Sequence record: PQ758395
Source of the DNA: Escherichia phage phita32
Reading direction: 5' to 3' (one strand)
DNA length: 64,000 nucleotides
Positions 21,360 through 49,189 of this stretch are shown piece by piece. Made by a program: the position numbers and the translations under genes. Every line of letters begins with the position of its first letter. The first letter of the stretch is position 1. The notes under the pieces are model-generated. The model was not told where the DNA came from. It saw nothing but the letters and a program-made list of their open reading frames with translations, and made no database searches.

Positions 21360-21479
21360 ATGAGCACTACACGCCAGCACACAAAGGTAACTATTATCGT
21401 TTGCATCATTGGTTATATCCTGGCGCAAATGTTGATGGGTAGCGCCAACGGTGTCGCAAAATTTTTCTTAAACTTTTAA
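21360..21479 (+). CDS. small hydrophobic peptide (39 aa, not in ORF track)
   Basis: ATG 21360 with AAAAAGGAGG SD; MSTTRQHTKVTIIVCIIGYILAQMLMGSANGVAKFFLNF. Confidence 0.4.
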   Translation: MSTTRQHTKVTIIVCIIGYILAQMLMGSANGVAKFFLNF

Positions 21480-21507
21480 TTGACAAGCTAACTTAGATCA
21501 GTATACT
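21480..21507 (+). promoter_or_regulatory. sigma70-like promoter (TTGACA-16-TATACT)
   Basis: -35 21480-21485, -10 21502-21507. Confidence 0.55.
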
Positions 21508-21558
21508 AAACACATAAACGGGAAAACTTCCCAGAACACACAAAAGGAGAAAAACACC

Positions 21559-21900
21559 ATGACTACTATGACCGCCGCAGAAAAAGCTATTCAGGTTGCA
21601 GCACTGAAAAAACAGATCGCAGACCTTGAGAACAAGATCGATAACTTTGAAATCGACGAGGACAAGTACGACGAAAACTATGATGAATGGTTAGACGAGA
21701 TCTACGGCGAAATTATGATCGGAAACATTTCTTTTCTTCCGTCGCGTATCCTCAAGGAGCTAGATCCTATCGCTTACCGCTGCGGATTTAGCGACTACAT
21801 CGACAGCCTGGATATTGAGGACGATGAAGAATACCAGGAATTACAGACAGAGTTGGAAGAAGCAAAAGAAGAGCTTGCAGAACTGGAAGAAAACGAGTAA
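21559..21900 (+). CDS. hypothetical acidic coiled-coil protein
   Basis: ORF with AAGGAGA SD; highly acidic C-terminus. Confidence 0.5.
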   Translation: MTTMTAAEKAIQVAALKKQIADLENKIDNFEIDEDKYDENYDEWLDEIYGEIMIGNISFLPSRILKELDPIAYRCGFSDYIDSLDIEDDEEYQELQTELEEAKEELAELEENE

Positions 21901-21911
21901 ATTTATTTTTA

Positions 21912-21948
21912 GATGGCCTTGACGCCAGGGCCATCGATAAAGTAAACT
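21912..21948 (+). promoter_or_regulatory. palindrome-embedded promoter, copy 2
   Basis: GATGGCC TTGACG CCAG GGCCATC .. TAAACT. Confidence 0.45.
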
Positions 21949-21989
21949 TTATACTGTTAACACTGAACTAATACAGAGGAGTTAAAACC

Positions 21990-22235
21990 ATGGCAGCACT
22001 AATCACCAAATACTATGCACCGACCAACACCAAAAGCGCACGCATCTTGGTAAAAGGATTCGGACGTAAAAAGGTTTACACCTGGGATTATGCCTTAGAC
22101 ATGGAAGACAACTACACCAACGCGATGACAGATTTTATTAATGAACTAAATAAACAGATCTTAACCAATTATAAGGTGACCGACATCGCCTATGTTGGGG
22201 AAGGTGGGATCTGTTTTGTCGGTATTGTCAAATAA
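21990..22235 (+). CDS. hypothetical protein
   Basis: ORF with GAGGAG SD. Confidence 0.5.
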   Translation: MAALITKYYAPTNTKSARILVKGFGRKKVYTWDYALDMEDNYTNAMTDFINELNKQILTNYKVTDIAYVGEGGICFVGIVK

Positions 22236-22247
22236 GCTGTTTTTCGG

Positions 22248-22267
22248 TGGCCCTGGTGGCAGGGCCA
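22248..22267. promoter_or_regulatory. variant palindrome TGGCCCTG-gtgg-CAGGGCCA
   Basis: 8-bp arm hairpin/operator followed by TATAAAG; related to the GATGGCC..GGCCATC family. Confidence 0.3.
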
Positions 22268-22309
22268 TCTATAAAGATAGTTTATTAACACCATGAAAGG
22301 AGAAAGTAC

Positions 22310-22663
22310 ATGATCAGTGGGGCTAGTTTTATTATTGGCGCTATTGCTACGGCTTTAATTGTAAACAAGATCCAGGATAAAAAGGAAAGAGGAAGTACCG
22401 ACCTTGCAGAATATCCATTTTGGACATTCAATGATAACGAAGATTATATTGTAAAGTATAAAAATAAAGAAGGTGACCAAGTAACACCGCGACCGATCCC
22501 GGCTTACAAGATGCAGGAAACACTATACCGCTTGGAGGCGGGAGGCGCAAAAATTGTGGACTTTTGGGGATACGATCACACAGATCAGGAAGTTATAAAG
22601 CGCCGTATCCGGGCTATTCAGGCCAATATTGAAGTTAGCAAGGGGGGAATATATGAAGATTAA
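22310..22663 (+). CDS. putative membrane-anchored protein
   Basis: N-terminal helix ISGASFIIGAIATALIVNKI; AAAGGAGAAAG SD. Confidence 0.5.
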   Translation: MISGASFIIGAIATALIVNKIQDKKERGSTDLAEYPFWTFNDNEDYIVKYKNKEGDQVTPRPIPAYKMQETLYRLEAGGAKIVDFWGYDHTDQEVIKRRIRAIQANIEVSKGGIYED

Positions 22664-22850
22664 TTTTGAGAAGATTGTAAAGCGATCTCATGATTCCGAA
22701 GAGCTGCCGGAACGCCGCCAGCGTAACAATAAACTGAATAAGCCAAAAAGATTTGGGAAGATCTGGCGGAATCATTATGATCGTAAATTGCCGGGCCTCC
22801 TTTTGGAACGTGAACGACAGGCGGAACGATACCGCCACAAAGGCAAATAA
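22653..22850 (+). CDS. hypothetical basic protein
   Basis: Start moved from track 22629 to ATG 22653 (AAGGGGGG SD); Arg/Lys-rich. Confidence 0.4.
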   Translation: MKINFEKIVKRSHDSEELPERRQRNNKLNKPKRFGKIWRNHYDRKLPGLLLERERQAERYRHKGK

Positions 22851-22859
22851 CAACCAACG

Positions 22860-22888
22860 CCCCGCTATTGTGCGGGGCTTTTTATTTC
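22860..22888 (+). terminator. rho-independent terminator
   Basis: GCCCCGC-tattgt-GCGGGGC followed by TTTTTATTT. Confidence 0.7.
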
Positions 22889-23008
22889 TATCCCGCCGAT
22901 AGCGCCCCTGGTTGGCCCCACAACGCCCTAAAGGCCCCCTACCTATGCAATCTCCTTTCTTAACCTGAAAACATCGTCAAAGGCCGTTTTAAAGCGTTAA
23001 AAATATTG

Positions 23009-23036
23009 TTGACATCTAAAATATTCTAGATATACT
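23009..23036 (+). promoter_or_regulatory. sigma70-like promoter (TTGACA-16-TATACT)
   Basis: -35 23009-23014, -10 23031-23036. Confidence 0.55.
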
Positions 23037-23071
23037 AATCACATCAAAGCGAGAAGTAAGGAGTAAACGCC

Positions 23072-23341
23072 ATGCGTAAATTGAAAAATTTTGATAAAGT
23101 CGATGTTGTCCTAAATAATTTTTACTACTGCAATAATAAAGCCGTTTGGTGGCGCGATAATTCCACCGATAAGGTTAAGGCGCGCTTTCTCCAAGGGTAC
23201 TGGCAAGGCCGTCCAGTGATTAAAATCCTGGGGCAATTGGTAGCGTTTAAAAATTGCCGCCGTGTTGACGACGTTGAAGAGATTTTAAACATTTTGCGCC
23301 ACAATAATTTAAAAATAGTGTTGACAAGTAAATATCGATAA
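23072..23341 (+). CDS. hypothetical protein
   Basis: ORF with AAGGAG SD. Confidence 0.5.
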   Translation: MRKLKNFDKVDVVLNNFYYCNNKAVWWRDNSTDKVKARFLQGYWQGRPVIKILGQLVAFKNCRRVDDVEEILNILRHNNLKIVLTSKYR

Positions 23342-23348
23342 GTATACT
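23321..23348 (+). promoter_or_regulatory. sigma70-like promoter (TTGACA-16-TATACT) with leader hairpin
   Basis: -35 23321-23326 inside 3' end of upstream gene; GGCGGGAAAACTTCCCGCC hairpin 23359-23377. Confidence 0.55.
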
Positions 23349-23405
23349 TAAACACACAGGCGGGAAAACTTCCCGCCACTAACAAAGAAAATAGGAGAAA
23401 ATATC

Positions 23406-24029
23406 ATGACCACCGTTAACATTACTACAGGTTACAATTTATCTTTCGACGTGCTGACCGACGAACAAAAAGAAAAAGCCGTTGAAATGGTCCGCGAAAG
23501 AGAAGAACACAGCGGGGATAACTTTTTTGCAGAAAGTGTAATTGAATACTATAAAGAGTATGTTTTTCCAGAGTACGGGCTTGAAGATACAGAGGTACAT
23601 TGGTCCGGCTTTTGGTGCCAGGGTGACGGCGCGTCAATCAGTGCTGAAAACGTGGACTTAGAAAAATTCTTGCGTAAAGTCAAGTCTCTGACTAAATTCC
23701 GCTCAATTCGCCACTTGTTCGGCACAATGCATGACGGGGAATTATCAGCCAGTGTTGAACGTGACACATACAGCCGCTATAGTCACGAAAACACTGTAAA
23801 CGGATACATCGATACTACTTGGCTAGACCTAACCGCCAAACAAGAAAACAAAGTGGAAGATTTGGAAGAGCTGATCACCGAGACGGTACGGGAGTTATCC
23901 CGCAAGGTTTACGTAGACTTGGAAGCGGCCTATTTGGAGCAATTCACATCTGAAAACTTGATCGGCCTTATCGAGGCCAATGATTGGCGGTTTGATGTCG
24001 ATGAATATGGTGAGATGACTTTTTCATAA
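23406..24029 (+). CDS. hypothetical acidic protein (207 aa)
   Basis: ORF with AGGAGAAAA SD; no motif assigned. Confidence 0.5.
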   Translation: MTTVNITTGYNLSFDVLTDEQKEKAVEMVREREEHSGDNFFAESVIEYYKEYVFPEYGLEDTEVHWSGFWCQGDGASISAENVDLEKFLRKVKSLTKFRSIRHLFGTMHDGELSASVERDTYSRYSHENTVNGYIDTTWLDLTAKQENKVEDLEELITETVRELSRKVYVDLEAAYLEQFTSENLIGLIEANDWRFDVDEYGEMTFS

Positions 24030-24037
24030 ATAAAGTG

Positions 24038-24065
24038 TTGCAATAACCTAAAAACCTGTTATATT
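24038..24065 (+). promoter_or_regulatory. sigma70-like promoter (TTGCAA-16-TATATT) with leader hairpin
   Basis: GGGGGCAAGACGTTTGCCCC hairpin 24075-24094. Confidence 0.45.
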
Positions 24066-24118
24066 AAAACTCAAGGGGGCAAGACGTTTGCCCCACACAA
24101 AACAAAGAGGAAAACATC

Positions 24119-24499
24119 ATGAAAAACACTACTAAAGCTATTGACACCGTTATGTTTAACCTGGTTACCTTTCGCGAGGATATGAAAGATCTTCCACGTG
24201 AAACAGTGTGCGACCATATCGAAAACTATCGCAAACTAATCAAAGAGTTGCCTTTAAAACGTGACCAGTATGCGGCTAACGCTATGCTTAACGCTATGAT
24301 CAAAAAGATGATCCAGTGTGATTTAACTCTGGCCTATGATTATGCAGGTGGTCGTTTTGCAGTATACAATCGGCCCGTGCCTGGTATGAGCACCACCGAA
24401 GAATTGCACGCGCTCAATCTAAAACAAGACGTGTGGGATAGTATGCCCCGCGTGGTGGTGTGGGCAGAAAGCGGAAAGATTTACGGCGATAATTTTTAA
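24119..24499 (+). CDS. hypothetical protein
   Basis: ORF with AGAGGAAAA SD. Confidence 0.5.
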   Translation: MKNTTKAIDTVMFNLVTFREDMKDLPRETVCDHIENYRKLIKELPLKRDQYAANAMLNAMIKKMIQCDLTLAYDYAGGRFAVYNRPVPGMSTTEELHALNLKQDVWDSMPRVVVWAESGKIYGDNF

Positions 24500-24509
24500 T
24501 CAGGTAACA

Positions 24510-24538
24510 GGCGGCGGCATATTTGCCGCCTTATTGTT
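24510..24538 (+). terminator. probable rho-independent terminator
   Basis: GGCGGC-atattt-GCCGCC then TTATTGTT. Confidence 0.55.
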
Positions 24539-24566
24539 AAACAGAACTGTAAAAGAGGTACATAGA

Positions 24567-24926
24567 ATGGAATTTATTATTCTGACTGTATTAGTTGCCT
24601 TGTTCAACGCCTGGATCGCTGGCAAGGTAGGCAGATCCGCTTTCTTATGGTTTATTATATCTATTTTCCTGGGAGTGGTTGCAACTATCATATTGGTTAT
24701 CCTTGCAATTGTTGACAAAGGTAATAATAGAAAGGGTAAAGTATTTTCCGACCTGTATGACGCACAAACGTTCGTCAACGCCTATTATGGTGATCTCCCG
24801 GTATCCCTACGCTGCAGCCTGGCACAACAGGTTTTTGATGAAGCTAAAACCAGAGATCAAGCCCATGAGATATGTTTAACTGAGGCGGATCGCCTATTTG
24901 AGAGGAATAGAAAATATGTGGGCTAA
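24567..24926 (+). CDS. putative membrane protein (two TM helices)
   Basis: Start moved from track 24534 to ATG 24567 (AAGAGG SD); helices IILTVLVALFNAWIAG and FLWFIISIFLGVVATIILVILAIV. Confidence 0.5.
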   Translation: MEFIILTVLVALFNAWIAGKVGRSAFLWFIISIFLGVVATIILVILAIVDKGNNRKGKVFSDLYDAQTFVNAYYGDLPVSLRCSLAQQVFDEAKTRDQAHEICLTEADRLFERNRKYVG

Positions 24927-25161
24927 CCGTTTAAATAACTCCGCGCTAATTAATCCCTTTAGTGAAGATTTGAAGCCAGCCGCCTGGCGTGATGGATTCA
25001 ATACCGAAGGATTTATTTTCAGGCCTGATCTTGAGGAATTTTATAACAATGGATCGAACAACGACAGAGATAATTTTTCTTGTGATGTGCGTAGCGATGG
25101 TACTCCTGGGGGCCATTGCAAACCACATCACTACTACCAGGGGGAAAGGGGGAGACGATGA
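24916..25161 (+). CDS. hypothetical protein (uncertain)
   Basis: ORF with GAGAGGAA SD; overlapping alternative-frame ORF 24989..25174 makes the assignment ambiguous. Confidence 0.25.
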   Translation: MWANRLNNSALINPFSEDLKPAAWRDGFNTEGFIFRPDLEEFYNNGSNNDRDNFSCDVRSDGTPGGHCKPHHYYQGERGRR

Positions 25162-25277
25162 CAACCAAGGATAAGCCCCGCACCGATAAGGCGCGCCGGG
25201 TTATGGTATGGCTTGAGATCATCGCCCTTGAAATATTGCTAGGCGTAGGGATGTACTTTATCGCTGTAAGTAACTAA
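25158..25277 (+). CDS. small membrane peptide (39 aa, not in ORF track)
   Basis: ATG 25158 with AGGGGGAAAGGGGGAG SD; MTTKDKPRTDKARRVMVWLEIIALEILLGVGMYFIAVSN; terminator follows. Confidence 0.4.
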   Translation: MTTKDKPRTDKARRVMVWLEIIALEILLGVGMYFIAVSN

Positions 25278-25282
25278 GAACG

Positions 25283-25310
25283 GCCCCCGATCATGGGGGC
25301 TTATCTTTTT
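25283..25310 (+). terminator. rho-independent terminator
   Basis: GCCCCC-gatcat-GGGGGC then TTATCTTTTT. Confidence 0.7.
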
Positions 25311-25332
25311 AAAAAATTTCCCTTCCAGGGTG

Positions 25333-25361
25333 TTGCAATCCGGTCCGCAATATGGATAATA
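25333..25361 (+). promoter_or_regulatory. sigma70-like promoter (TTGCAA .. GATAAT) with leader hairpin
   Basis: GGGGAGCTAATCCCC hairpin downstream; same architecture at 26149. Confidence 0.45.
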
Positions 25362-25416
25362 ACAATCAACGGGGAGCTAATCCCCACCAACACAAAAACC
25401 AGAAAGGAGAAACAAA

Positions 25417-25617
25417 ATGAGCAACAATATCCGCGTTATTAACTTCAAAAAAGAAGAAAAAATTGCCGTGCTGATTGACGGTCAAGAAATCTTCAAGGGC
25501 TATTATGAAGATCATCAAACGGCGATTAGTATCACTCGCGTGATCGGTTACCATAATTTCTACCCCCAAGGCGCTGAGGCAGCGGTTAAACGAATCAAAG
25601 AGATTGTAGGCCTGTAA
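25417..25617 (+). CDS. hypothetical small protein
   Basis: ORF with AAAGGAGAAA SD. Confidence 0.5.
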   Translation: MSNNIRVINFKKEEKIAVLIDGQEIFKGYYEDHQTAISITRVIGYHNFYPQGAEAAVKRIKEIVGL

Positions 25618-25628
25618 ATTTATTTTTA

Positions 25629-25665
25629 GATGGCCTTGACTCCAGGGCCATCAATAAAGTAAATT
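25629..25665 (+). promoter_or_regulatory. palindrome-embedded promoter, copy 3
   Basis: GATGGCC TTGACT CCAG GGCCATC .. TAAATT; near-identical to 21291 copy. Confidence 0.45.
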
Positions 25666-25707
25666 TTAATCGTGATAAAATAATCAGTGCAAAAAGGAGT
25701 AATGATC

Positions 25708-26007
25708 ATGTTCATACCCGCCAATAATCTTTATTTCTTTGATGGTCAAATCGTAGACGGTGTGGAGGTGGAGATCACCGGGTGCCCTGGTGGTCAGGTT
25801 ATGACTTTCCGGAATAATGCCTTTGATGATTCTCATATCGTTATGAGAATGGAAGTTAGTAAGCTAGATGATAAGAAAACATTGATTGACTATTCCGTCA
25901 AAGATCATCCAGACTACCACATGATCTATGGTGATTTGTGCATTGTTGACCGTGACAAGGTGGGCGGCATTGTGATCGCTATTGTGAACGATGTTTTCTC
26001 TGTATAG
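25708..26007 (+). CDS. hypothetical protein
   Basis: Start moved from track 25687 to ATG 25708 (AAGGAG SD 8 nt upstream). Confidence 0.5.
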   Translation: MFIPANNLYFFDGQIVDGVEVEITGCPGGQVMTFRNNAFDDSHIVMRMEVSKLDDKKTLIDYSVKDHPDYHMIYGDLCIVDRDKVGGIVIAIVNDVFSV

Positions 26008-26065
26008 TTCCGGTAAATGATGCAAAATAAGGCCCCTAGCAGGGCCTGCAGCGATATAATCACAT

Positions 26066-26100
26066 AAAGGCCATGCAACCGCATGGCCTTTATTATTTTG
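26066..26100 (+). terminator. rho-independent terminator
   Basis: AAAGGCCATGC-aacc-GCATGGCCTTT then ATTATTTTG. Confidence 0.6.
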
Positions 26101-26148
26101 GCGTTACAGCGGCCCCCAAGGTGCTTAAAAAATTTTTTAAAGAAGTAC

Positions 26149-26177
26149 TTGCATCAAGCCCTACAATATGGATAATA
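26149..26177 (+). promoter_or_regulatory. sigma70-like promoter (TTGCAT .. GATAAT) with leader hairpin
   Basis: GGGGGCGGCCCCC hairpin downstream. Confidence 0.45.
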
Positions 26178-26232
26178 GGACGTGTCGGGGGGCGGCCCCC
26201 AATCATTAACCGGATAGATAGGAGTTAAAATC

Positions 26233-26517
26233 ATGGCTATTGTTACCGTTGGCGATGTAGTAGAAATGGAAGCAAAATACTTAAAAGCGGGTATGCATAT
26301 CCTACGGAATGATCAAGAGTTACTATTAACGATGGTCGACTATAATCCCGGCCAGGATTATCCAAGCATCGACTACTTTTTTGAGTATGTTGATGAAGAG
26401 TTGAAAGAGGATGAGGCCTATTGCGGTGAGTTCTGCAACTTCTTTTGTCCTGATGAGGTTGTAAAGGTTATTTATCAACCTGGCGTAGCTTTCCCGCTGC
26501 ACGCTATCAATAAATAA
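26233..26517 (+). CDS. hypothetical protein
   Basis: ORF with AGGAG SD. Confidence 0.5.
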   Translation: MAIVTVGDVVEMEAKYLKAGMHILRNDQELLLTMVDYNPGQDYPSIDYFFEYVDEELKEDEAYCGEFCNFFCPDEVVKVIYQPGVAFPLHAINK

Positions 26518-26582
26518 ACCTGGCGGGGCCGAAAAGGCCCCTACAGCATAAAATCATAAAAAATAAAGAGAGGCAAATCATC

Positions 26583-26816
26583 ATGATGGAACAAATTAAA
26601 CGCGCCGAGGCTATTAATGGCAATGTGATCTATTTTGTTAGCAATAACGAAAAAGGCGTACCATATGCAGCGGTAATAGTGCAGCCTGACGGCGATTATT
26701 GGTTTACTGTATACGGATCTTATTCTTTCGGGCGTCCGGTGCATGATAGAATTTTAAAAGTAGCTAATCCAACCGGGAAGAATATCACAGCAGAAAAATT
26801 TTTTGAAAATAGTTGA
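26583..26816 (+). CDS. hypothetical protein
   Basis: ORF with AGAGAGG SD; GGGGCCGAAAAGGCCCC hairpin upstream. Confidence 0.5.
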   Translation: MMEQIKRAEAINGNVIYFVSNNEKGVPYAAVIVQPDGDYWFTVYGSYSFGRPVHDRILKVANPTGKNITAEKFFENS

Positions 26817-26840
26817 CATGACCGTATAAGACTGTAGTAT
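26813..26840 (+). promoter_or_regulatory. sigma70-like promoter (TTGACA-16-TAGTAT) with leader hairpin
   Basis: -35 overlaps stop of upstream gene; GGGGGCAAGCCCC hairpin 26851-26863. Confidence 0.55.
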
Positions 26841-26889
26841 ATAAATCAAAGGGGGCAAGCCCCACCAACCACAAAGAGGATAAAAAATC

Positions 26890-27069
26890 ATGGCTATTAT
26901 TGCAAAGACCGAGATTTTAGGTTTAGATTCTATTCTCCTGGCATACGAGGAAGCTATAGAAATGTATGTGGTTTCCTATGGTGAGTATATCCGTGAATAT
27001 GAATCTATTGATCTAGCTTTTGAATGTTATATTCACCAGGTAAATAAGGCATATGATGATTATCGTTAA
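26890..27069 (+). CDS. hypothetical small protein (59 aa, not in ORF track)
   Basis: ATG 26890 with AAGAGGATAAAAAA SD. Confidence 0.4.
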   Translation: MAIIAKTEILGLDSILLAYEEAIEMYVVSYGEYIREYESIDLAFECYIHQVNKAYDDYR

Positions 27070-27151
27070 AATAGTTTGACAACAGTCAACAATCTGGTAA
27101 AGTGTACTACATAGCGCGGGAATACTTCCCGCCATTAATGAGGGTAATTTA

Positions 27152-27298
27152 ATGAAAACTTTCAACGCAACGGCCTCGACAATTGGTTATATTATTACAG
27201 TACAAGCCGTGGATCTGGTAGCAGCAGCAAACAAGATTAAAAAGATGATTCCGCCAGGCAGTGAATTTTCCGTTTGGGAAGTAAAAAATAAATCTTGA
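27152..27298 (+). CDS. hypothetical small protein (48 aa, not in ORF track)
   Basis: ATG 27152 downstream of GCGCGGGAATACTTCCCGCC leader hairpin and GAGGGTAA SD. Confidence 0.35.
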   Translation: MKTFNATASTIGYIITVQAVDLVAAANKIKKMIPPGSEFSVWEVKNKS

Positions 27299-27673: not shown

Positions 27674-27778
27674 ATGAAACAGAAATTAATTGATGCGGTG
27701 ATCCTGGTTATTGCCCTAGGTATTGGCCTGATTGCAACCATGGCTAATATGATCTTGTCTTCCAACGGTATCGGATAA
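27674..27778 (+). CDS. small membrane peptide (34 aa, not in ORF track)
   Basis: ATG 27674 with AAGAGGATAA SD; MKQKLIDAVILVIALGIGLIATMANMILSSNGIG. Confidence 0.35.
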   Translation: MKQKLIDAVILVIALGIGLIATMANMILSSNGIG

Positions 27779-28094: not shown

Positions 28095-28379
28095 ATGAAA
28101 AAGATGATCGCAGTGGTTTCCCTGGTTGTTGGACTTAATGCGCCTGTAATGGCTAAAGAGCTGGCAAAAGAGGTTGATCTAACGGATATCCATGCCGTCA
28201 ATCAAATCGGGGTTACTTATCGCTTATGCCTTGCCGCTAAAACTTTTAATGACGGCACAACAGAGTACTACGGATTCGAGGGTATCCGGTGCGGTGAGCT
28301 TGCTCGCGACCTTAAGGAAGATCCAGACCTGGAAGATCTGCCCATCACCGTAAACGGTAAAGCTTACGTAGACCGTTAA
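28095..28379 (+). CDS. putative secreted/periplasmic protein
   Basis: N-terminal signal-peptide-like MKKMIAVVSLVVGLNAPVMA; AAGAGGATAG SD. Confidence 0.5.
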   Translation: MKKMIAVVSLVVGLNAPVMAKELAKEVDLTDIHAVNQIGVTYRLCLAAKTFNDGTTEYYGFEGIRCGELARDLKEDPDLEDLPITVNGKAYVDR

Positions 28380-28381: not shown

Positions 28382-28522
28382 ATGAGAAAGATAATCATCA
28401 CCTTGGGGATTGTGGTAGCAATATTGGCGCTCTTTCCCCTTATGGTTAGATATGTGCTGATACGTGCTGTTCTAGTGGTCAGCGATCTGGTGTTATATAT
28501 ATATATTAACTTACTGTTTTAG
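28382..28522 (+). CDS. small hydrophobic peptide (46 aa, not in ORF track)
   Basis: ATG 28382 directly after upstream stop; MRKIIITLGIVVAILALFPLMVRYVLIRAVLVVSDLVLYIYINLLF. Confidence 0.3.
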   Translation: MRKIIITLGIVVAILALFPLMVRYVLIRAVLVVSDLVLYIYINLLF

Positions 28523-33359: not shown

Positions 33360-33572
33360 TCATAGTCTACCACCCCTGAACTCTTCGTGCTCAGGCATAA
33401 TAGAGAACCAGATATCTACGATGTCCTCCCACGTCAGGTCATCAGCCTCAGGATCCACCTGGAGCAAAGATGGAGAGTCTTCAGAATCGAAGTTTTCCTC
33501 TTTAACTGGCTCAGCCAAGGGACATATGGTCACTCCTTTGGATGTTTCTTCAGATGCATGTGTGTTGATCAT
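33360..33572 (-). CDS. hypothetical acidic protein
   Basis: ORF; ATGA overlap with upstream small peptide gene. Confidence 0.45.
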   Translation of the reverse strand: MINTHASEETSKGVTICPLAEPVKEENFDSEDSPSLLQVDPEADDLTWEDIVDIWFSIMPEHEEFRGGRL

Positions 33573-33670
33573 GTTCCACCCGTGAGTATTCCGGCAACAG
33601 CCGCTATGGACGTAATGATCATCAGGATCACCACTAAAACCTCGGATAATGTTCTCATTGTGTATCCCAT
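33569..33670 (-). CDS. small membrane peptide (33 aa, not in ORF track)
   Basis: ATG at 33670 downstream of minus-strand promoter; MGYTMRTLSEVLVVILMIITSIAAVAGILTGGT. Confidence 0.35.
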   Translation of the reverse strand: MGYTMRTLSEVLVVILMIITSIAAVAGILTGGT

Positions 33671-33690
33671 ATTCTACAAATTATGTGTGG

Positions 33691-33719
33691 ATACTATCAC
33701 TGGAGCGGTAATGTGTCAA
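33691..33719 (-). promoter_or_regulatory. sigma70-like promoter, minus strand (TTGACA-17-TAGTAT)
   Basis: Minus-strand -35 is the complement of 33714-33719, -10 the complement of 33691-33696. Confidence 0.55.
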
Positions 33720-34954: not shown

Positions 34955-35206
34955 TTAACGTTCTACAAAAATACCGTTCAGTTCAATAACCAGGAATTTC
35001 TGGTCTTCACTATCGTCTCGTGCCAGCACCTCACAGACGTATCGGTCATCCCCATCATCATCGCAGTCAAATACAAGACTGAGGACTTTATCATGATAAA
35101 CCTTCGCCACTACCGCCTCGTAAGTATTGCCGATTGTGAATCCAAGATAATCTCCAATGCATTTGACAACAACATGATCACCAGCATTCAAGTCAATCTT
35201 CGTCAT
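34955..35206 (-). CDS. hypothetical protein
   Basis: Start moved from track 35272 to ATG 35206 with AAGGAG SD. Confidence 0.45.
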   Translation of the reverse strand: MTKIDLNAGDHVVVKCIGDYLGFTIGNTYEAVVAKVYHDKVLSLVFDCDDDGDDRYVCEVLARDDSEDQKFLVIELNGIFVER

Positions 35207-35361
35207 TACTGCGCTCCTTGGGTAATAATACTGTATGTAAAACTTTAACCAGAGATGTGAACAACGCCCCAAAACACACCGATAGCGCTAAAACAGACAA
35301 GGCCATCATTAAAGCTTCAGTAAAATCAGTCATTCCTCACCTCTTGTTAGTCACTATACTA

Positions 35362-35625: not shown

Positions 35626-35714
35626 ATAAGCACCTTACTGAAATACAAGACACAGGGTTAAGGTTACTGACCAGCAAATAATTAACAGTGCCGTTGCAAC
35701 CTTGGCAAGATTTA

Positions 35715-36002
35715 TCATAGTGCCTCTAAGATTTCATACCCTTCGGGTCGGAATACAAGCCACTCCGTGGCTCCGTTTGGTCGATATGCTTTATACAAAA
35801 CAACCTGATCTCGGCACATACACATGGCTACATAGTTTTCATCCACACCTGCAGCCTGCATTGCATCTTCTTCTCCGGCAACTGCTTTGCTTACAACTTC
35901 CTTGGTAGGCAGGTGTGCGATCAGCTCGTCACCATCATTAATTCCAAAATGGCTGAGTTCTCCATTGGTATCTTTAATCTTAATCTTAACCAGATCTTTC
36001 AT
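35715..36002 (-). CDS. hypothetical protein
   Basis: ORF in operon. Confidence 0.45.
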   Translation of the reverse strand: MKDLVKIKIKDTNGELSHFGINDGDELIAHLPTKEVVSKAVAGEEDAMQAAGVDENYVAMCMCRDQVVLYKAYRPNGATEWLVFRPEGYEILEAL

Positions 36003-38402: not shown

Positions 38403-38504
38403 TTAATAGCCGTAACCTAACACATTAACTACAACTGCGATTGCAAACATAATTTCAAAGCATGCAATCTCTACATTTGGGACTAATTTCTTAATCACGC
38501 CCAT
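38403..38504 (-). CDS. small hydrophobic peptide (33 aa, not in ORF track)
   Basis: ATG 38504 with GAGGTG SD 10 nt after the HPF stop; MGVIKKLVPNVEIACFEIMFAIAVVVNVLGYGY. Confidence 0.3.
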   Translation of the reverse strand: MGVIKKLVPNVEIACFEIMFAIAVVVNVLGYGY

Positions 38505-38513: not shown

Positions 38514-38831
38514 TCATTCTCCAAAGTCAATCTTTACTTTGCCTTTCCCCTTACCTTTCTTTCCACCGCATTTAGCCAGCTGACGTGCTGCAACATCTAC
38601 CATACGGTCAGTTGCCTCGTAAGCATCACTACCTTTAGCCTTGGCAATAACTTCTTTTCCAGAATTGTCAAAAATGAGCGCCATAACTCCCTGGTGATCA
38701 TTTTCAACTTTTACACTCACACGTGCATAGTTGGCAGAGGGGTGCAAACGCTCCAGCTTAGACATTTTGTGGGAAATGAAAGACACCATACCTTCAGTGA
38801 TTTCTACGTTGCCAGTGATTTCAATTTGCAT
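38514..38831 (-). CDS. ribosome hibernation promoting factor / RaiA (YfiA) family protein
   Basis: MQIEITGNVEITEGM..KLERL..VSVKVEN..AKGSDAYEATDRMVDVAARQLAK aligns along its length with E. coli HPF/RaiA (MQLNITGNNVEITEAL..KLEQY..VVLKVEK..AEGQDMYAAIDGLIDKLARQLTK). Confidence 0.75.
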   Translation of the reverse strand: MQIEITGNVEITEGMVSFISHKMSKLERLHPSANYARVSVKVENDHQGVMALIFDNSGKEVIAKAKGSDAYEATDRMVDVAARQLAKCGGKKGKGKGKVKIDFGE

Positions 38832-40681: not shown

Positions 40682-40776
40682 AATTCAGCCTCGCATAGAC
40701 ATAATCACTATAAACAGGCAAACAATGAATCCGAATGCCACGCCACTCATAAACGTTAATATTGATGCAATCATAG

Positions 40777-42332: not shown

Positions 42333-42532
42333 CCCTCATCGCACGTCTGATATAACCACTCTATAAAATCTTGATACCATTCGCCCTCTGAGCGCTCCGT
42401 AGGCCAATAATCTTCACCCTCTCGTGCATTAAAATCTGAGTATTCAACTTTCCACTCCTTTACCAGCTCGTGGAGAAGGTTTTCAGCCTGCTCTAAAGAT
42501 TTATTTTTTGCCATTGCTGTCTCCTTTTTCAA
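42329..42532 (-). CDS. hypothetical protein
   Basis: short ORF. Confidence 0.4.
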   Translation of the reverse strand: MKKETAMAKNKSLEQAENLLHELVKEWKVEYSDFNAREGEDYWPTERSEGEWYQDFIEWLYQTCDEG

Positions 42533-42733
42533 GATAGTTATACATCAGAACTGCACCACCTAAGATGGCTACCAGTAACAATACCCCAGATAGCATCTCA
42601 ATAAACATGGCTTGAAACACTGGAAGGTCTCCCTAAATTAACGCACCATTTTAAATACATGCTCTTTTCCCATAAAGGTGCTTGGCTAAGATCTGCGTAG
42701 AACGCAATCTCTTTAAGAACAGTATAAACAGTT

Positions 42734-42970
42734 TTAGGTGCGGTATCCATCCCTACTCTCCTTTTTCTCCTTACGGATATTCTTGTAGTAATCAACTAGG
42801 CACATTATTACGATGAAGATAACAATAGGCCAAAAAGGTGCAGCAGTGATGATGGTGATAAAATCATCAAACTTCACCTTTCGTCTAGCCACGATGCATA
42901 CACCTGTCAAGAATACCGCTGTTATAACGGCTATCACCAGGTAACCTATTAGCACAACATTTATACTCAT
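42734..42970 (-). CDS. putative small membrane protein (two TM helices)
   Basis: VVLIGYLVIAVITAVFLTGVCIV and AAPFWPIVIFIVIMCLV helices. Confidence 0.4.
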   Translation of the reverse strand: MSINVVLIGYLVIAVITAVFLTGVCIVARRKVKFDDFITIITAAPFWPIVIFIVIMCLVDYYKNIRKEKKESRDGYRT

Positions 42971-43000
42971 TAGTCCTCACTTTGTAGGTTAAATTGTATA

Positions 43001-43764: not shown

Positions 43765-43803
43765 GCTACCTCCTACTTCTACCGTCCCTGGTAAGATGAA
43801 TTA

Positions 43804-44202: not shown

Positions 44203-44471
44203 ACACTGGGCCTCTTAAATGAATCTATGTAATCAATTAAATCCCAAGCATCCCTATGACCTGTCAGAGGGTATACTTCTCCAAGAGGGATCATAGCAAT
44301 AAGTCTATCAAAAACCCAATCTGGACGCAACATTTTATGGTGATACTCCCACTCACCTTCTACAGACTTTTTCTGAGTGATCAGGATCTCTGTGTAGTGT
44401 TTCGCCTGTCTTGAGTAGATTGAGAATGACTTGTACATAAATGGCTCCCTCTTGTTGAAAACAAAATACAC
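44199..44471 (-). CDS. hypothetical protein
   Basis: ORF, overlapping stop/start. Confidence 0.4.
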   Translation of the reverse strand: MYFVFNKREPFMYKSFSIYSRQAKHYTEILITQKKSVEGEWEYHHKMLRPDWVFDRLIAMIPLGEVYPLTGHRDAWDLIDYIDSFKRPSV

Positions 44472-44473
44472 TA

Positions 44474-44758
44474 CTACCAGGTCACTGTCAAGTAGGCAAC
44501 TGTGTTATTTTTCTCCGGAGAGATGCCAACAACATCCACCTGCAGACCTCCTTCCCTCAAATCCCCAACAATGTGTGGGAAGTAGTCTGAGAGGTGTGAT
44601 GGGAGATTTATCGAAAATCCACATCCCAGAAAGCCTGCTAACGCTTTATTTTGTATCTCCCCTACAATCGCATCATAAATAGAGTTAAGCTCGTCAGGAA
44701 GCGTTACAGGGCGTTTTAGCGCTAACTGGTGCAACTTGTCCTTAGCACTCATTTTCAT
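44474..44758 (-). CDS. hypothetical protein
   Basis: Start moved from track 44827 to internal ATG 44758 to remove overlap with the MTase gene. Confidence 0.4.
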   Translation of the reverse strand: MKMSAKDKLHQLALKRPVTLPDELNSIYDAIVGEIQNKALAGFLGCGFSINLPSHLSDYFPHIVGDLREGGLQVDVVGISPEKNNTVAYLTVTW

Positions 44759-45288
44759 TTCAAGTCTGCCTCTGGAGGTGCCAACCACATAAATGGCGGC
44801 AGGTCTAAACGGTTCTTCTTGTCCCACACAAAATATGCATATGCTTGCCCGTCAGTTCTGCCATTCGATTGGAATGATGGACGCTTAGATATTGTGATCA
44901 CAGTGGTAGGTGCATTATCAAGCCACCATTCAAATCTGGCTTTGCTTTCCAGAAAATTAAGACGCAAAAGCATAATAACTACGTCAGCATCTTTCAACGC
45001 CTTGTCTACAAACTCACGAGCCAAGCTGTACGGTGGGTTGGTGATAATACAGTCAACATGGTTGTATTCTGTATTCAGATAGTCAACACCTTCTTGGATT
45101 TCTCCCCATGCAGATCCTAACGGCATACGGGAGTAGAACACGCCTGAGGCGCTATTTCTGCAAGGCTCCAAATAGGTCCAATCTTCTGGGAACGGAATGA
45201 GGTCATACAGCCCTTCTGCACACCACTCCGGTGTCACATACTCATCGTAGGCGTTACGTTGTTCATCAGGTTTTCTAGCACAAGTCAT
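44755..45288 (-). CDS. small DNA methyltransferase (N6-adenine / N4-cytosine type)
   Basis: Motif IV DCIITNPPYS (NPPY). Confidence 0.6.
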   Translation of the reverse strand: MTCARKPDEQRNAYDEYVTPEWCAEGLYDLIPFPEDWTYLEPCRNSASGVFYSRMPLGSAWGEIQEGVDYLNTEYNHVDCIITNPPYSLAREFVDKALKDADVVIMLLRLNFLESKARFEWWLDNAPTTVITISKRPSFQSNGRTDGQAYAYFVWDKKNRLDLPPFMWLAPPEADLK

Positions 45289-45339
45289 GCAAATCTCCAG
45301 ATCATAAAAGCCCTCCGAAGAGGGCTTTAGAATTAATGT

Positions 45340-46389
45340 TTAAGCTTCTTCGACAATTCCTGCGCCCAGGATTTTTTCATTGAGCTCTTTTGCTGTTTTA
45401 ATAATATTGTCCACCAGACGCTTACGGGTCTTATCTTTCACCTGAACTTCTTCGCCGCCGTTCAGGGTGGTTTTCAATTGGGACAAAATGTCCTGAAGCT
45501 CTACCACAGAGAATCGCTGCAGATCTTCCGAGGTAATCTCACCCAGTGCAATCTTAACGGTCTCACCACTCTCCATCTGCAGATTCAGGAACACAGTGTG
45601 AACATCACCTTTCGAACCACCCGCTTTTGCAGATTCAACAGCATGAACTAACTCATCTAAAGATGTGCACTGGTGAATCTCCGGAAGACCTGCTTCACCT
45701 AACACGCCTTCTTCATCACCTTTTGCCAGAAGCTTTTTCGGTTTTTGTCCGTTCTGGATGCGTTGTATGTTGCCTTCATCCAGAATAATAGCTCCAGTGC
45801 GTGCTGCCAGCTCTTCTCCGTCCAACCACACTTCGCCACCAGCTGTGATGGATGCGATCTCATCTTCTGTCAGCACCCCACCGTAGTATTTTTCGATCAG
45901 GCGTTCAAAACGTTTTTTCCAGTAGCTGACCTGAGTATTCATGTTCACACCGTTACCATAAGTGCCACCTTGATAGTAGTGGAACATAAATTCTGTGTCC
46001 GGAGCCACAGTACGTTCTTTACAACCAAGCCATAAGATTGTTCCAGCAGAGCAGCACATCCCTTCAGCATGTGCAACAACGCTTGCCTGAGACTCGCGGA
46101 ATGCCTGCAGATAAGCCATTGCAATGTGCACGCAACCCCCAGGGCTATTGATGATCACCCGAATGCTTTCTTCCGGCTGAGCCATACGGATCGTCTGCAG
46201 ACGAGACATATGATCTTGTAAGTCTTCCAAATCGTCGATATAAAGAACGTGGTCAACAACAGGTGTTGGGTAGCTGTATGTTTCCATAATACCACCCGGC
46301 ATACCAAACATTTTATTACTCATAGGTTCGAAACCGTTCTGTTTTTCTTTCATGCCGTGTACTATGGTGCTGCGAGGTGTTAAATTCAT
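45340..46389 (-). CDS. ClpP-like (S14 fold) serine protease domain protein with C-terminal extension
   Basis: RVIINSPGGCVHIAMAY and AHAEGMCCSAGTIL resemble ClpP INSPGG and catalytic Ser region; about 150-aa charged C-terminal extension. Confidence 0.6.
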   Translation of the reverse strand: MNLTPRSTIVHGMKEKQNGFEPMSNKMFGMPGGIMETYSYPTPVVDHVLYIDDLEDLQDHMSRLQTIRMAQPEESIRVIINSPGGCVHIAMAYLQAFRESQASVVAHAEGMCCSAGTILWLGCKERTVAPDTEFMFHYYQGGTYGNGVNMNTQVSYWKKRFERLIEKYYGGVLTEDEIASITAGGEVWLDGEELAARTGAIILDEGNIQRIQNGQKPKKLLAKGDEEGVLGEAGLPEIHQCTSLDELVHAVESAKAGGSKGDVHTVFLNLQMESGETVKIALGEITSEDLQRFSVVELQDILSQLKTTLNGGEEVQVKDKTRKRLVDNIIKTAKELNEKILGAGIVEEA

Positions 46390-46449
46390 GAGAAATCCTT
46401 AATATTGGAAGTTGAAAGCTATTTATTTAAACCTGATTCACATTTACCT

Positions 46450-46761
46450 TTATTTAGCAATCACTAAGGAATACTTACGATTGTCAGAAGCATCACAGCT
46501 CAATGATTGCCAGTCTACCACATACCACGTATCATTGTCAACAATTACTTTATCGCCTGTTCTGTAGCAGGTGCTGCTTTCAATAATCCGAGACTCGATA
46601 AAGAATCTGTGTCGGCACTCACGTAGCAACGCTAAGTTGATTATATTACCACCACTGTCCTTGATCCACACATTCTTGTATCCTTTATTTGCCAAAATTG
46701 TCTCGCCTTTATAGACAAACAGGCAGTATATTTTATTCAGTCTCTCTTGTATTGTAGCCAT
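46450..46761 (-). CDS. hypothetical protein
   Basis: ORF with AGGAGA SD downstream of its own promoter. Confidence 0.45.
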   Translation of the reverse strand: MATIQERLNKIYCLFVYKGETILANKGYKNVWIKDSGGNIINLALLRECRHRFFIESRIIESSTCYRTGDKVIVDNDTWYVVDWQSLSCDASDNRKYSLVIAK

Positions 46762-46791
46762 ACTATCTCCTTCTACTTGTCTTGTCCGATA

Positions 46792-46820
46792 ATAATATCT
46801 AAAGCTTACCTGTTTGTCAA
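46792..46820 (-). promoter_or_regulatory. sigma70-like promoter, minus strand (TTGACA-17-TATTAT)
   Basis: Minus-strand -35 is the complement of 46815-46820, -10 of 46792-46797. Confidence 0.55.
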
Positions 46821-46864
46821 CAACTGTTTTAGATATTTAAGGGTGGAATAACCACCCTTCTGTA

Positions 46865-47653
46865 TTACTCGGAAACAGGGGTCCAAATATGATTTGCACG
46901 ATCCTCTATAAGATTGAGAGCAATCTGACGACCCAACCCGGAACGAACGACATCGTCTGGACTATCAAAGCTGATCATTCCAACCTCGGGATCTGGATGA
47001 CGAGTAAAGAAATCCGTCACCCATGCAAGGCCAGATTTACCAGGGATGTCACGTTGACTATTATCGCCCATAATTACAAGGGTGGCCTGATCAGAGATCC
47101 TTGTAATAATTGACAACATTTCTTCAGGGTTAGTTTGCTGTGCCTCGTCAATCAGGACAAAGCATCGCTCATCGAAACTACGACCACGAATGCTTTCAAC
47201 TTCACAAATCTCGATACGGCTGTTCTGACCATCTCCCAGCATTGCGGCAAAAGCACCTTTGCCAACACGACGACAAATCGTGTCCATCATGCTTCGAAGA
47301 TAGGGCCACAGTTTTTGCATTGCATTCCCTGGTTTAAATCCTGAAGTCTTTCCTGTCTGAACGTAAGGACGTGCAACAATGATCTTATCAATCTCGTTCT
47401 TACGCAGAAGATCACCTGCATATGCAGATGCCATGAATGTCTTACCGGATCCAAACACACCGTTTACAATAATAATCTTACGTGACCCTAGATAATCAAG
47501 ATACTTTTGCTGCTTCTTATTCATTGGTCGGAGAGCTGGAGCAGTGTGCTCTCTTTCGTCAGCAAATTTCTCAGCAGCCTTACGCAGGCGATCAGATTTG
47601 CGAGCCTCTCTAGCTTCATCACGCATGCGTTTTGTTTCTTTAGCTCGACCCAT
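46865..47653 (-). CDS. phoH: PhoH-like ATPase
   Basis: Walker A GVFGSGKTF, Walker B FVLIDEAQ and overall PhoH-family pattern. Confidence 0.8.
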   Translation of the reverse strand: MGRAKETKRMRDEAREARKSDRLRKAAEKFADEREHTAPALRPMNKKQQKYLDYLGSRKIIIVNGVFGSGKTFMASAYAGDLLRKNEIDKIIVARPYVQTGKTSGFKPGNAMQKLWPYLRSMMDTICRRVGKGAFAAMLGDGQNSRIEICEVESIRGRSFDERCFVLIDEAQQTNPEEMLSIITRISDQATLVIMGDNSQRDIPGKSGLAWVTDFFTRHPDPEVGMISFDSPDDVVRSGLGRQIALNLIEDRANHIWTPVSE

Positions 47654-47691
47654 GTTGGGACTCCTTTCAGATTGAGATGTGCCAAGTACTT

Positions 47692-48042
47692 TTACTGCAA
47701 CAGTTTTTCAATAGCCGCTTCCATGCTGCTTGCAACAGCCTGAACTCGGATATTCATCTCTTCTTGGTGGATCAGCTCCTTAAGCTCTTTAACGGTAAAT
47801 TCTTTAGAGAAACCTTCCACCATGATCTTGTGCAAGGCTTCTTGCGTGTCCACTTGCAAGAACTTTTCCAGTTTGTTGGCAGAGGCTTCTAAATCAGCCC
47901 GAATACGAGGGTCATCTGTGCGATTCAGCATTAGGCGTAAGCCATCAAGATTAGTAGAAATAGCGTCTGCATGTTGAGTAACTAACCGTGGCAAAATGAG
48001 ATCTACAAACTTATTAGCCAAATCGATACGTTCTTGTGTCAC
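47692..48042 (-). CDS. hypothetical protein
   Basis: ORF (GTG start). Confidence 0.45.
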   Translation of the reverse strand: MTQERIDLANKFVDLILPRLVTQHADAISTNLDGLRLMLNRTDDPRIRADLEASANKLEKFLQVDTQEALHKIMVEGFSKEFTVKELKELIHQEEMNIRVQAVASSMEAAIEKLLQ

Positions 48043-48152
48043 TGTTGCACCCCCTCTTCATCCTCATGATATTTCTTTTCACGCTTGTGTTTTTTCTTAA
48101 GCTCAAGCGCAATCTCTTTTTTGTACGCCTTCTTCAAGGCTTTTTTAGCCAT
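48039..48152 (-). CDS. small basic protein (37 aa, not in ORF track)
   Basis: ATG 48152 with AGGAGG SD; MAKKALKKAYKKEIALELKKKHKREKKYHEDEEGVQQ. Confidence 0.3.
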   Translation of the reverse strand: MAKKALKKAYKKEIALELKKKHKREKKYHEDEEGVQQ

Positions 48153-48214
48153 TTGGCACCTCCTCTGCTCTCATTACGCTAATTATAACCAACTTAACAA
48201 AGCTTTGTCAACGA

Positions 48215-48688
48215 TTAGTCAACCTGAACCCAACCATCTGCTACCTTTTTAAACATTCTTTGGTTATCACTACCTCTGAATGGTTTTTTGGTGGGGTTAT
48301 CTTTTTCGTACTTACCATCCATAATGTAATCGACACTATCTTTAATGTAATCTGGGACTTCTTCAAACAAATACCCTGTGTACACCCAGATAGTTTTTGT
48401 GTTGCCGAAGCGTTCACGGATAGCGAGAATGATCGAGTACATACCATCGATATTGTAAGGCGCTAAAGGTTCGCCACCACACAATGTAACTCCGGTAATA
48501 TGTTTCGGCTCTATAGAGTGGAGTATACTCTCAATTGTGTCATTTGTTAACGGTTCCCCTTTAGCGGGTGACCAAACACTTTTGTTTTGGCAACCAACGC
48601 AGTGATGTGGACAACCAGAACAGAACACCGTTGTCCTAATGCCTGGGCCGTCAACCATGCTACACTCTAGAATATTAACAACATTCAT
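48215..48688 (-). CDS. nrdG: anaerobic ribonucleotide reductase activating protein (radical SAM)
   Basis: N-terminal CPHHCVGC (CxxxCxxC) radical-SAM cluster motif, NrdG size, adjacent to nrdD. Confidence 0.8.
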   Translation of the reverse strand: MNVVNILECSMVDGPGIRTTVFCSGCPHHCVGCQNKSVWSPAKGEPLTNDTIESILHSIEPKHITGVTLCGGEPLAPYNIDGMYSIILAIRERFGNTKTIWVYTGYLFEEVPDYIKDSVDYIMDGKYEKDNPTKKPFRGSDNQRMFKKVADGWVQVD

Positions 48689-48921
48689 TCCTTATCCTCT
48701 TTGAGGTAGGGAGATTCAGGCCCACAATAAGCCCTATCTAAGAAAACAGCTTCTTCCCCTCTGGAATCAGTAGATTTATAATACCCATCACCCTGGTAAC
48801 TAACGAACCAGTAGCACCCATCATCGCTTTCTACTGTTGTGGCTCTGTCCGAATGAAAGATAATTTCATAATCCTTATCGAATGTAAACCATCTGTTGGC
48901 TTTTATGCAGGCACCTATCAT
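48685..48921 (-). CDS. hypothetical protein
   Basis: ORF, overlapping stop/start with nrdG. Confidence 0.4.
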   Translation of the reverse strand: MIGACIKANRWFTFDKDYEIIFHSDRATTVESDDGCYWFVSYQGDGYYKSTDSRGEEAVFLDRAYCGPESPYLKEDKE

Positions 48922-49072
48922 AAGGGACCTCTCTTCTGTGGTGTGCTTCTATTCAAGATAGACCTATAAAAGTCCATTTGATGAATCCGTATACCTTTCT
49001 ATACTTACACTTCAGTGCTAACAATTTTATCTTGATTTTCTTGATAAATTTCTGCATTTCAACCCCTTATGC

Positions 49073-49189
49073 TTATAAGTACTCCGCATCGCATTCAGGG
49101 CAATGCCAAATAAAATCATCAAGTGCCTTGCACCAACGAAGATTGCAACGACAACCACACTTGCAAATTTTATAAATACCTTTAGACAT
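49073..49189 (-). CDS. small Cys-rich zinc-ribbon peptide (38 aa, not in ORF track)
   Basis: ATG 49189 with AGGAGG SD; MSKGIYKICKCGCRCNLRWCKALDDFIWHCPECDAEYL. Confidence 0.3.
   Translation of the reverse strand: MSKGIYKICKCGCRCNLRWCKALDDFIWHCPECDAEYL

Follow-up and report, generated by a model that had tools for sequence, protein, structure and literature searches.

The window analysed in this study, a 64,000-nucleotide (nt) stretch of Escherichia phage phita32 (sequence record PQ758395), harbors ten short open reading frames (ORFs) of 33 to 59 amino acids (aa) that are, judged from their conservation, very probably genuine small protein genes, each predicted to be translated separately and annotated as a hypothetical protein in related phages (Table 1). 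A preliminary description had listed them between positions 21,360 and 49,189 as ORFs missing from the ORF track. All ten are intact as described, with an ATG start and an in-frame stop, and are named here after their first coordinate. Their absence from the track is real but merely due to its cut-off, because the track stops at 60 aa, and the list proved incomplete, as further small ORFs are found on the minus strand. None of the ten is new: the genus has been well sampled, and the genes are known from it and annotated as hypothetical.

Megablast of positions 21000-30000 and 33000-50000 against annotated phage records identified the phage as a Vequintavirus (rV5-like) E. coli myophage, whose nucleotide sequence is 92-97% identical to those of rV5, LL12, DrSchubert and 10C2_SA_NWU, among many others. 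The genes are organized in two converging arms, one on the plus strand that extends to ~30.4 kb and one on the minus strand that starts at ~33 kb, with an ORF-free stretch of ~2.5 kb between them; the rV5 paper of 2013 reported "88 mainly small ORFs" for the corresponding region. The comparison is based on the syntenic ~30-kb block of eight annotated relatives (LL12, rV5, DrSchubert, 10C2, MiataMamis, nimi, CM1, and Murica) and on IMG/VR contigs, in which each ORF was aligned. A scan of IMG/VR with two neighboring proteins returned only three loci from close relatives; the other loci are distant, and the local out-of-genus search provided no credible homologues of the small ORFs in them.

Coding constraint on the ten small ORFs

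The idea that genuine small genes had been overlooked by the length-filtered track is borne out by the comparison with related phages: the reading frames are preserved in four to ten relatives and the substitutions show a synonymous excess, whereas control ORFs fail the same test. Pairwise pN/pS values, which were obtained from protein-guided codon alignments for 27152 and 28382, range from 0.06 to 0.42 in the proposed frame and are generally much higher in the other two frames. The non-synonymous over synonymous rate determined by the counting method (omega) is ~0.07-0.36 for nine ORFs, and 28382 has a pN/pS of 0.42. The synonymous excess is significant for eight ORFs (counting test, p = 4.5e-10 to 0.011) and not computable for the length-variable 28382. 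The ten ORFs are under purifying selection, as are their neighbors of at least 60 aa, for which the same counting gave an in-frame omega of 0.02-0.33 and out-of-frame values of 0.66-8.7. The controls, namely, ORFs without a Shine-Dalgarno sequence (SD) in the same gaps and SD-bearing ORFs inside larger genes, are disrupted in all relatives or else exhibit an omega of 0.9-1.9. Finally, the frame of 25158 survives an in-frame indel of 3 nt and that of 28382 indels of 6 nt, and 21360 keeps its frame with a start shifted by one codon.

The canonical SD at proper spacing that had been ascribed to the whole set is present upstream of eight ORFs, but it is missing in 28382 and 33569. Four of the eight possess a strong SD (21360, 38403, 48039, and 49073) and the other four a four-base core (25158, 26890, 27152, and 27674). 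An SD core of at least four bases precedes 15 sense-strand ATG ORFs of 30-59 aa in the two arms, compared with four antisense ORFs and 7.5 in shuffled sequences, and an SD by itself is thus weak evidence for a gene. What sets the ten apart from chance is gap-filling together with conservation. Each of them is the best or sole occupant of a gap between coding-strand ORFs of at least 60 aa, and at least three (25158, 33569, and 48039) exhibit a 4-nt overlap of stop and start codon with the neighboring cistron.

That some or all of these ORFs are chance frames in regulatory spacers, with the constraint acting on promoters, terminators or RNA instead of protein, is very unlikely: shuffled sequence does provide the mentioned background of SD-like cores, the gaps are rich in promoter-like and terminator-like sites, the test for 38403 is weak, its region being 98-100% identical among most relatives, and both 28382 and 33569 lack an SD in this genome, but the substitutions are concentrated at the synonymous sites of the proposed frame and not of the other two, the indels keep the reading frame, control ORFs of the same gaps fail the test, and there were no Rfam or tRNA matches.

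Several points weigh against the interpretation of all ten ORFs as genuine genes. The relatives are close (82-100% identity) and each test is based on only 10-47 substitutions, which are too few for significance in 38403 (p = 0.07). The ORF 28382 combines the lack of an SD with the highest pN/pS, and 28382 and 38403 are the weakest of the ten. The gene 27152 is found in only four of the relatives examined, and two viable phages carry premature stops, nimi in 49073 and DrSchubert in its allele of 27674, so that at least 49073 and 27674 are dispensable in the laboratory. Literature searches revealed no transcriptome, ribosome profiling (Ribo-seq) or functional screen covering these genes and no transcriptome, Ribo-seq or infected-cell proteome for a Vequintavirus, the proteomics of rV5 having covered virions. 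Statements on function draw throughout on composition and gene context, as the family, structure and defence libraries searched for functional clues yielded nothing significant; Pfam, NCBIfam and PDB sequence searches with the peptides were likewise without significant match, and paralogues within the window were not found. The premature stops in nimi and DrSchubert, the presence of 27152 in only four relatives and the replacement of 28382 in Murica and LL12 characterize 49073, 27674, 27152 and 28382 as accessory genes in a mosaic region.

Table 1. Small ORFs of the window. Prefix bas50, DrSchubert; TM, transmembrane; syn/non, synonymous/non-synonymous changes.
Position	Strand	Product	Counterparts; family	SD	Frame in relatives	Selection
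21360..21479	+	39-aa single-TM peptide	rV5 gp188 (ORF193), LL12_185, bas50_0106; phrog_16391	AAGGAGG, 7 nt upstream	Intact with same length in 8/9; divergent IMG/VR relative keeps frame, start shifted one codon	syn/non 12/6, p=2e-5; pN/pS 0.23
25158..25277	+	39 aa, basic N-terminus, C-terminal TM helix with two Glu	rV5 gp176 (ORF181), LL12_175, bas50_0116; phrog_13629	Upstream GGGGGAG, invariant	In-frame 3-nt indel in divergent relatives	p=0.0024; pN/pS 0.24
26890..27069	+	59-aa acidic, helical soluble protein (predicted)	rV5 gp169 (ORF174), LL12_169, bas50_0122; phrog_9374	Four-base core	Intact in 10/10	syn/non 20/5, p=4.5e-10; pN/pS 0.06
27152..27298	+	48-aa soluble protein (predicted)	bas50_0123, nimi_76; phrog_29854	Four-base core	Present in 4; absent from rV5, LL12, Murica, 10C2, CM1	p=0.011; pN/pS 0.28 (few substitutions)
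27674..27778	+	34-aa single-TM peptide	LL12_167, Murica gp121 (rV5 gp168 annotated longer); phrog_14631	AGAGGA	Two alleles; premature stop in that of DrSchubert	p=7e-4; pN/pS 0.40
28382..28522	+	46 aa, very hydrophobic, probably a TM hairpin	rV5 gp165 (ORF170), bas50_0127; phrog_16005	None in any relative	Kept through 6-nt indels; replaced in Murica and LL12	pN/pS 0.42
33569..33670	-	33-aa single-TM peptide (29 aa if Met5 start)	bas50_0136, Murica gp132, JES2013 gp152; phrog_34195	None	Intact in 8/9	p=0.0025; pN/pS 0.20
38403..38504	-	33 aa, C-terminal TM helix	rV5 gp140 (ORF145), bas50_0152; phrog_15151	GAGGTG, 5 nt upstream	Intact in 8/8	syn/non 5/6, p=0.07; pN/pS 0.37 (few substitutions)
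48039..48152	-	37-aa Lys-rich protein (12 Lys)	rV5 gp113 (ORF118), bas50_0180; phrog_7670	AGGAGGT		syn/non 12/5, p=1.4e-6; pN/pS 0.07
49073..49189	-	38-aa peptide, 7 Cys (C9, 11, 13, 15, 20, 30, 33)	bas50_0184, 10C2_107, CM1_00109; phrog_20137	AGGAGGT, 5 nt upstream	Premature stop in nimi	syn/non 12/7, p=1.2e-5; pN/pS 0.11
48953..49057	-	34-aa basic peptide	rV5 gp110		In only 2 relatives examined	omega 0.37 (few substitutions)
42501..42608	-	35-aa TM peptide	rV5 gp126 (already deposited)		Intact in 8/8	syn/non 19/4, p=1.3e-9
35635..35718	-	27-aa TM peptide candidate, hydrophobic (MINLAKVATALLIICWSVTLTLCLVFQ)		GAGG	Intact in 7/7	syn/non 3/0, p=0.015 (very few substitutions)

The ten ORFs were already represented in public annotations. 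Each coincides with a coding sequence in the record of at least one of the eight annotated relatives, and for six of them the identical peptide had already been deposited under the name hypothetical protein. PHROG v4 contains a family for every one of the ten, matched over the full length or nearly so (E 5e-20 to 1e-37); eight of these matches extend over the entire profile, the remaining two over positions 1-40 of 44 (phrog_16005) and 1-37 of 46 (phrog_7670). The annotated Vequintavirus genes are located at the same positions as those of the window, share 82-100% nucleotide identity with them and exhibit only allelic differences. In comparison with rV5, the window contains the additional gene 27152, and the rV5 record differs in frame or length at gp109 and gp157 and uses a longer start for gp168.

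Two rV5 calls were rejected. At the site of the Cys-rich ORF 49073, gp109 is a 228-nt call in another frame (window 49027-49263), which is open in only two of eight genomes and accumulated one synonymous and eight non-synonymous changes; its pN/pS of 0.81 compares with 0.11 in the 117-nt frame, which has a strong SD. The 306-nt gp157 (window 33360-33670, minus) results from extending the 70-aa gene 33360..33572 upstream across 33569; this long frame has no conserved start and is interrupted by stops whose positions differ between Murica, CM1 and IMGVR_2051. Relative to the conserved frames, the rV5 record NC_011041 thus contains gp109 in a wrong frame and an over-extended gp157, whereas the BASEL phages, MiataMamis and 10C2 annotate the conserved small ORFs instead. 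The practical value of our analysis lies in annotation: with a 60-aa cut-off, at least ten to sixteen real genes of this 30-kb stretch go unnoticed.

Genomic context and candidate roles of the small proteins

Consensus-like sigma-70 promoters and terminators punctuate both arms and are more frequent than in shuffled sequences; P118, P144 and other promoters are placed at corresponding sites in the rV5 records. Early transcription of the arms by the host RNA polymerase is therefore probable, and it would proceed in short units. Composition and gene context suggest that the products act as accessory or host-takeover factors, which would bind host components and not function as enzymes.

The characterization of several ORFs as hydrophobic single-helix peptides holds for six of them (21360, 25158, 27674, 28382, 33569, and 38403), each with a 19-residue window whose mean Kyte-Doolittle value is at least 2.08; they are predicted to insert in the inner membrane as one- or two-helix peptides. 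The descriptions of one Lys-rich and one Cys-rich product are equally accurate, with 12 Lys and one Arg in the 37 residues of 48039 and seven Cys in the 38 residues of 49073. Proteins 26890 and 27152 are probably small and soluble, 48039 would be basic and helical and act together with its coupled partner, and 49073 probably represents a zinc or iron mini-domain that is co-expressed with the genes of anaerobic ribonucleotide reductase (RNR).

In the plus arm, 21360 is immediately followed by a promoter (TTGACA-16-TATACT). The ORF 25158 is the third cistron of an operon comprising a 2-TM protein (24534..24926) and the gene 24898..25161; its ATG overlaps the upstream stop (ATGA), and a strong terminator is located behind it (25282..25301). 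TTGACA promoters flank 26890 on both sides (26813..26840 and 27076..27103), and its AF2 model consists of one long helix with low confidence. The downstream site also serves as the own promoter of the accessory gene 27152, which is present only in some genomes and has another TTGACA promoter just downstream. The two alleles of 27674 have the C-terminal motif ATMANMILSS in common, and TH18, from outside the genus, encodes a homologue with the ATMAN motif (E=5e-5, search of a small local database). The ATG of 28382 is located 2 nt past the stop of 28095..28379, a gene for a 94-aa protein with a signal peptide, and this junction is conserved.

In the minus arm, 33569 is the upstream cistron of a coupled pair, its TGA overlapping the next ATG (ATGA) of the acidic 70-aa ORF 33360..33572. 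In the window TGTAGAAT directly precedes its start, in most relatives a GGAG is separated from the ATG by only 3 nt, and the start is placed at Met5 by some annotators; promoter-like sites were found at 33719..33691 and 33700..33671. The ORF 38403 is located 9 nt downstream of a RaiA/HPF-like gene (38514..38831), and its protein is retained in a relative with only 88% identity over the 162-nt region of the ORF plus its flanks.

The Lys-rich gene 48039 is the first one after a perfect sigma-70 promoter (TTGACA-18-TATAAT, 12/12; 48211..48182), which corresponds to P118 of rV5. It is coupled to the gene of a 116-aa helical protein (47692..48042, phrog_7650) that is followed by PhoH. Local tblastn on fetched loci, with the low-complexity filter off, detected homologues at the same position in TH18, Klebsiella phage KpS8 (kps8_140) and Enterobacter phage FENT2 (annotated as phrog 7670). 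The ORF 48039 and its partner form a module that is conserved in this neighborhood, upstream of PhoH, in these three phages and is therefore old within Vequintavirinae. This module of phrog_7670 and phrog_7650 (47692-48152, minus; 18692-19268 in locus L019, 18896-19416 in L020, and 18865-19415 in L021), with a partner of ~116-141 aa, spans Vequintavirus, Seunavirus, Mydovirus and the TH18 lineage. In all three phages from outside Vequintavirus an endolysin and PhoH follow the module, and the small protein has a longer C-terminal tail.

The preliminary description had drawn attention to superinfection exclusion and lysis timing, in which small membrane peptides of phages often act. Exclusion or lysis roles are indeed known for small membrane proteins of T4, e.g., Imm, Sp and RI, and a holin, antiholin or RI-like function would fit the six hydrophobic helix peptides. 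It would also fit the position of 25158 as coupled last gene of an operon whose first gene, the 2-TM protein, is called 'putative holin' by the annotators of DrSchubert, and the coupling of 28382 to a signal-peptide protein, because of which this pair would act in the envelope. We nevertheless regard such a role as unlikely, the sole hint being the tentative 'putative holin' annotation in the 25158 operon. Searches of Pfam and NCBIfam revealed no resemblance to holin, Imm, Sp or RI families, matches at E<=1 being unrelated and sub-threshold; the best holin match, TIGR01598 holin_phiLC3 to 33569, reaches 12.9 bits compared with a cut-off of 39.7 bits. The alternative hallmark of a holin or antiholin, at least one TM domain with a charged C-terminus together with linkage to the endolysin, was not found either. 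None of the ten adjoins ORF129 (window 42734..42970), the holin candidate of the rV5 authors, the annotation of the ~30-kb block examined includes no endolysin, and the genes are located among sigma-70 promoters typical of early genes. The peptides of the window accordingly have only size class and predicted membrane location in common with T4-like Imm, Sp, RI, RIII and small holins; they exhibit no sequence or profile similarity to them and are not adjacent to an annotated lysis gene in this block. The small membrane peptides and the Lys-rich module are reasonable candidates for host takeover or counter-defence. Otherwise, the ten represent function-unassigned proteins of the sort that phages carry in large numbers, with the Cys-rich microprotein linked to the anaerobic RNR genes as a modest lead.

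The Cys-rich peptide 49073 and the anaerobic RNR genes

The gene 49073 is always located between nrdD and nrdG, and all seven Cys residues of its product are invariant. A promoter-like site (TTGACA-18-CATATT) and a hairpin are present between the nrdD stop and its SD. The peptide was found in 121 phage records, all of the Vequintavirus type, and an exhaustive HMMER search among 1.84 billion representatives provided no homologue outside this genus; it returned close short relatives together with long Cys-rich proteins whose multi-stretch matches look compositional. A Pfam match is lacking. The single-sequence AF2 model (pLDDT 70.9) consists of four short strands, and its nearest structural analogues are zinc modules, which are non-significant (best Foldseek E 2.2; phmmer E at least 0.7). 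In the CPEC knuckle, the invariant Cys and the predicted four-strand layout the peptide resembles zinc-ribbon, rubredoxin-type and cross-brace (RING/PHD/FYVE) modules. It differs from them in having only one CxxC pair and an unusual CxCxCxC run in its N-terminal half. We conclude that 49073 is probably a metal-binding (zinc or iron) mini-domain co-expressed with the anaerobic RNR genes.

The family phrog_20137 carries the label 'ribonucleotide reductase', which several annotators use, and 49073 could accordingly be an accessory subunit of the phage class III RNR system, e.g., a partner that binds metal or relays electrons for NrdD or the radical-SAM activase NrdG. Its constant position between nrdD and nrdG, the overlap of its stop with the nrdG start in 10C2, MiataMamis and CM1, and the invariant Cys residues under strong selection would be in agreement with this function. 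The same applies to nimi, which was isolated and propagated with a premature stop, as expected for an anaerobic-only factor. Such a subunit is unlikely in view of the comparison with NrdD and other phages. BLASTP against NrdD aligned only CPEC (E=0.086, single pairwise comparison), and 49073 contains neither an NRDD catalytic or glycyl-radical domain nor Zn-ribbon homology; it shares the gene neighborhood and the CPEC motif with the C-terminal Zn-ribbon of NrdD, but no alignment extends past these four residues. The NrdD of the window retains its own CLKCG...CPECG ribbon and the RRVSGYL glycyl-radical site. In TH18, the nearest out-of-genus relative with nrdDG, nrdD abuts nrdG without such an ORF, and the peptide is confined to Vequintavirus as reported above. 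Moreover, two unrelated genes (48953..49057 and 48685..48921) separate 49073 from nrdG in the rV5 clade, including rV5, DrSchubert and this window. The label of phrog_20137 looks like a propagated annotation, because only CPEC is common with NrdD, NrdD retains its Zn-ribbon and TH18 lacks such an ORF.

A more specific proposal is that 49073 is a previously unrecognised, Vequintavirus-specific metal-binding microprotein that serves the phage anaerobic RNR, e.g., by docking on or reducing the NrdG activase. Synteny and translational coupling favor this proposal, which is quite improbable given the absence of the peptide from other nrdDG-bearing phages and its lack of homology; if true, the label of phrog_20137 would be right by accident. 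The interpretation of 49073 as a detached Zn-ribbon tail of NrdD was rejected, the full C-terminus of NrdD being encoded in nrdD itself and the alignment being limited to CPEC.

The neighboring nrdD gene (49251-52933, minus) is interrupted by two HNH/AP2-type endonuclease ORFs (50364..50915 and 51315..51848). The equivalent of rV5 consists of one uninterrupted frame of 2124 nt, and CM1, 10C2 and TH18 annotate nrdD in pieces. The interruptions are likely mobile introns or free-standing homing endonucleases.

Additional small ORFs and other features of the region

The further small ORFs are all located on the minus strand (48953..49057, 42501..42608, 42598..42750, 40685..40774, 35193..35333, and 35635..35718). 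One example is 42501..42608, which is found shortly downstream of the rV5 holin candidate 42734..42970 with 42598..42750 (rV5 gp125) between them. Another example is 35635..35718, whose start overlaps the upstream stop and which is located in an 89-nt gap left unfilled by all eight annotated relatives. The exact peptide is absent from the public protein collection, and the evidence for this putative gene is weak.

The rV5 gp142 homologue (87 aa; 37751-38015, minus) contains a frameshift near position 37880, where the window has CCCCCC and rV5 CCCCC. The extra C results in a 48-aa ORF and a downstream piece, which is either a homopolymer sequencing error or a genuine pseudogene.

About 20 records named as Campylobacter jejuni phages (e.g., MG065647 and MG065635) exhibit at least 92% identity to this E. 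coli Vequintavirus. The host labels of these unannotated 'Campylobacter phage' records are probably wrong or the result of contamination.

The convergence zone between the two arms (30450-33000; ~2.5 kb, GC content 0.38) is devoid of a credible ORF and corresponds to the 'non-coding' box of rV5; neither a tRNA nor an Rfam family was found in it. Copies of a ATAGTTGCC(T/C)TG motif occur in both direct and inverted orientation at 31049-31282, and the zone further contains a perfect inverted repeat of 18 nt (31098-31115 / 31265-31282) and an exact direct repeat of 20 nt (31065 / 31404). The repeats are iteron-like, and the zone may represent a replication origin or a region of regulatory or non-coding RNA function.

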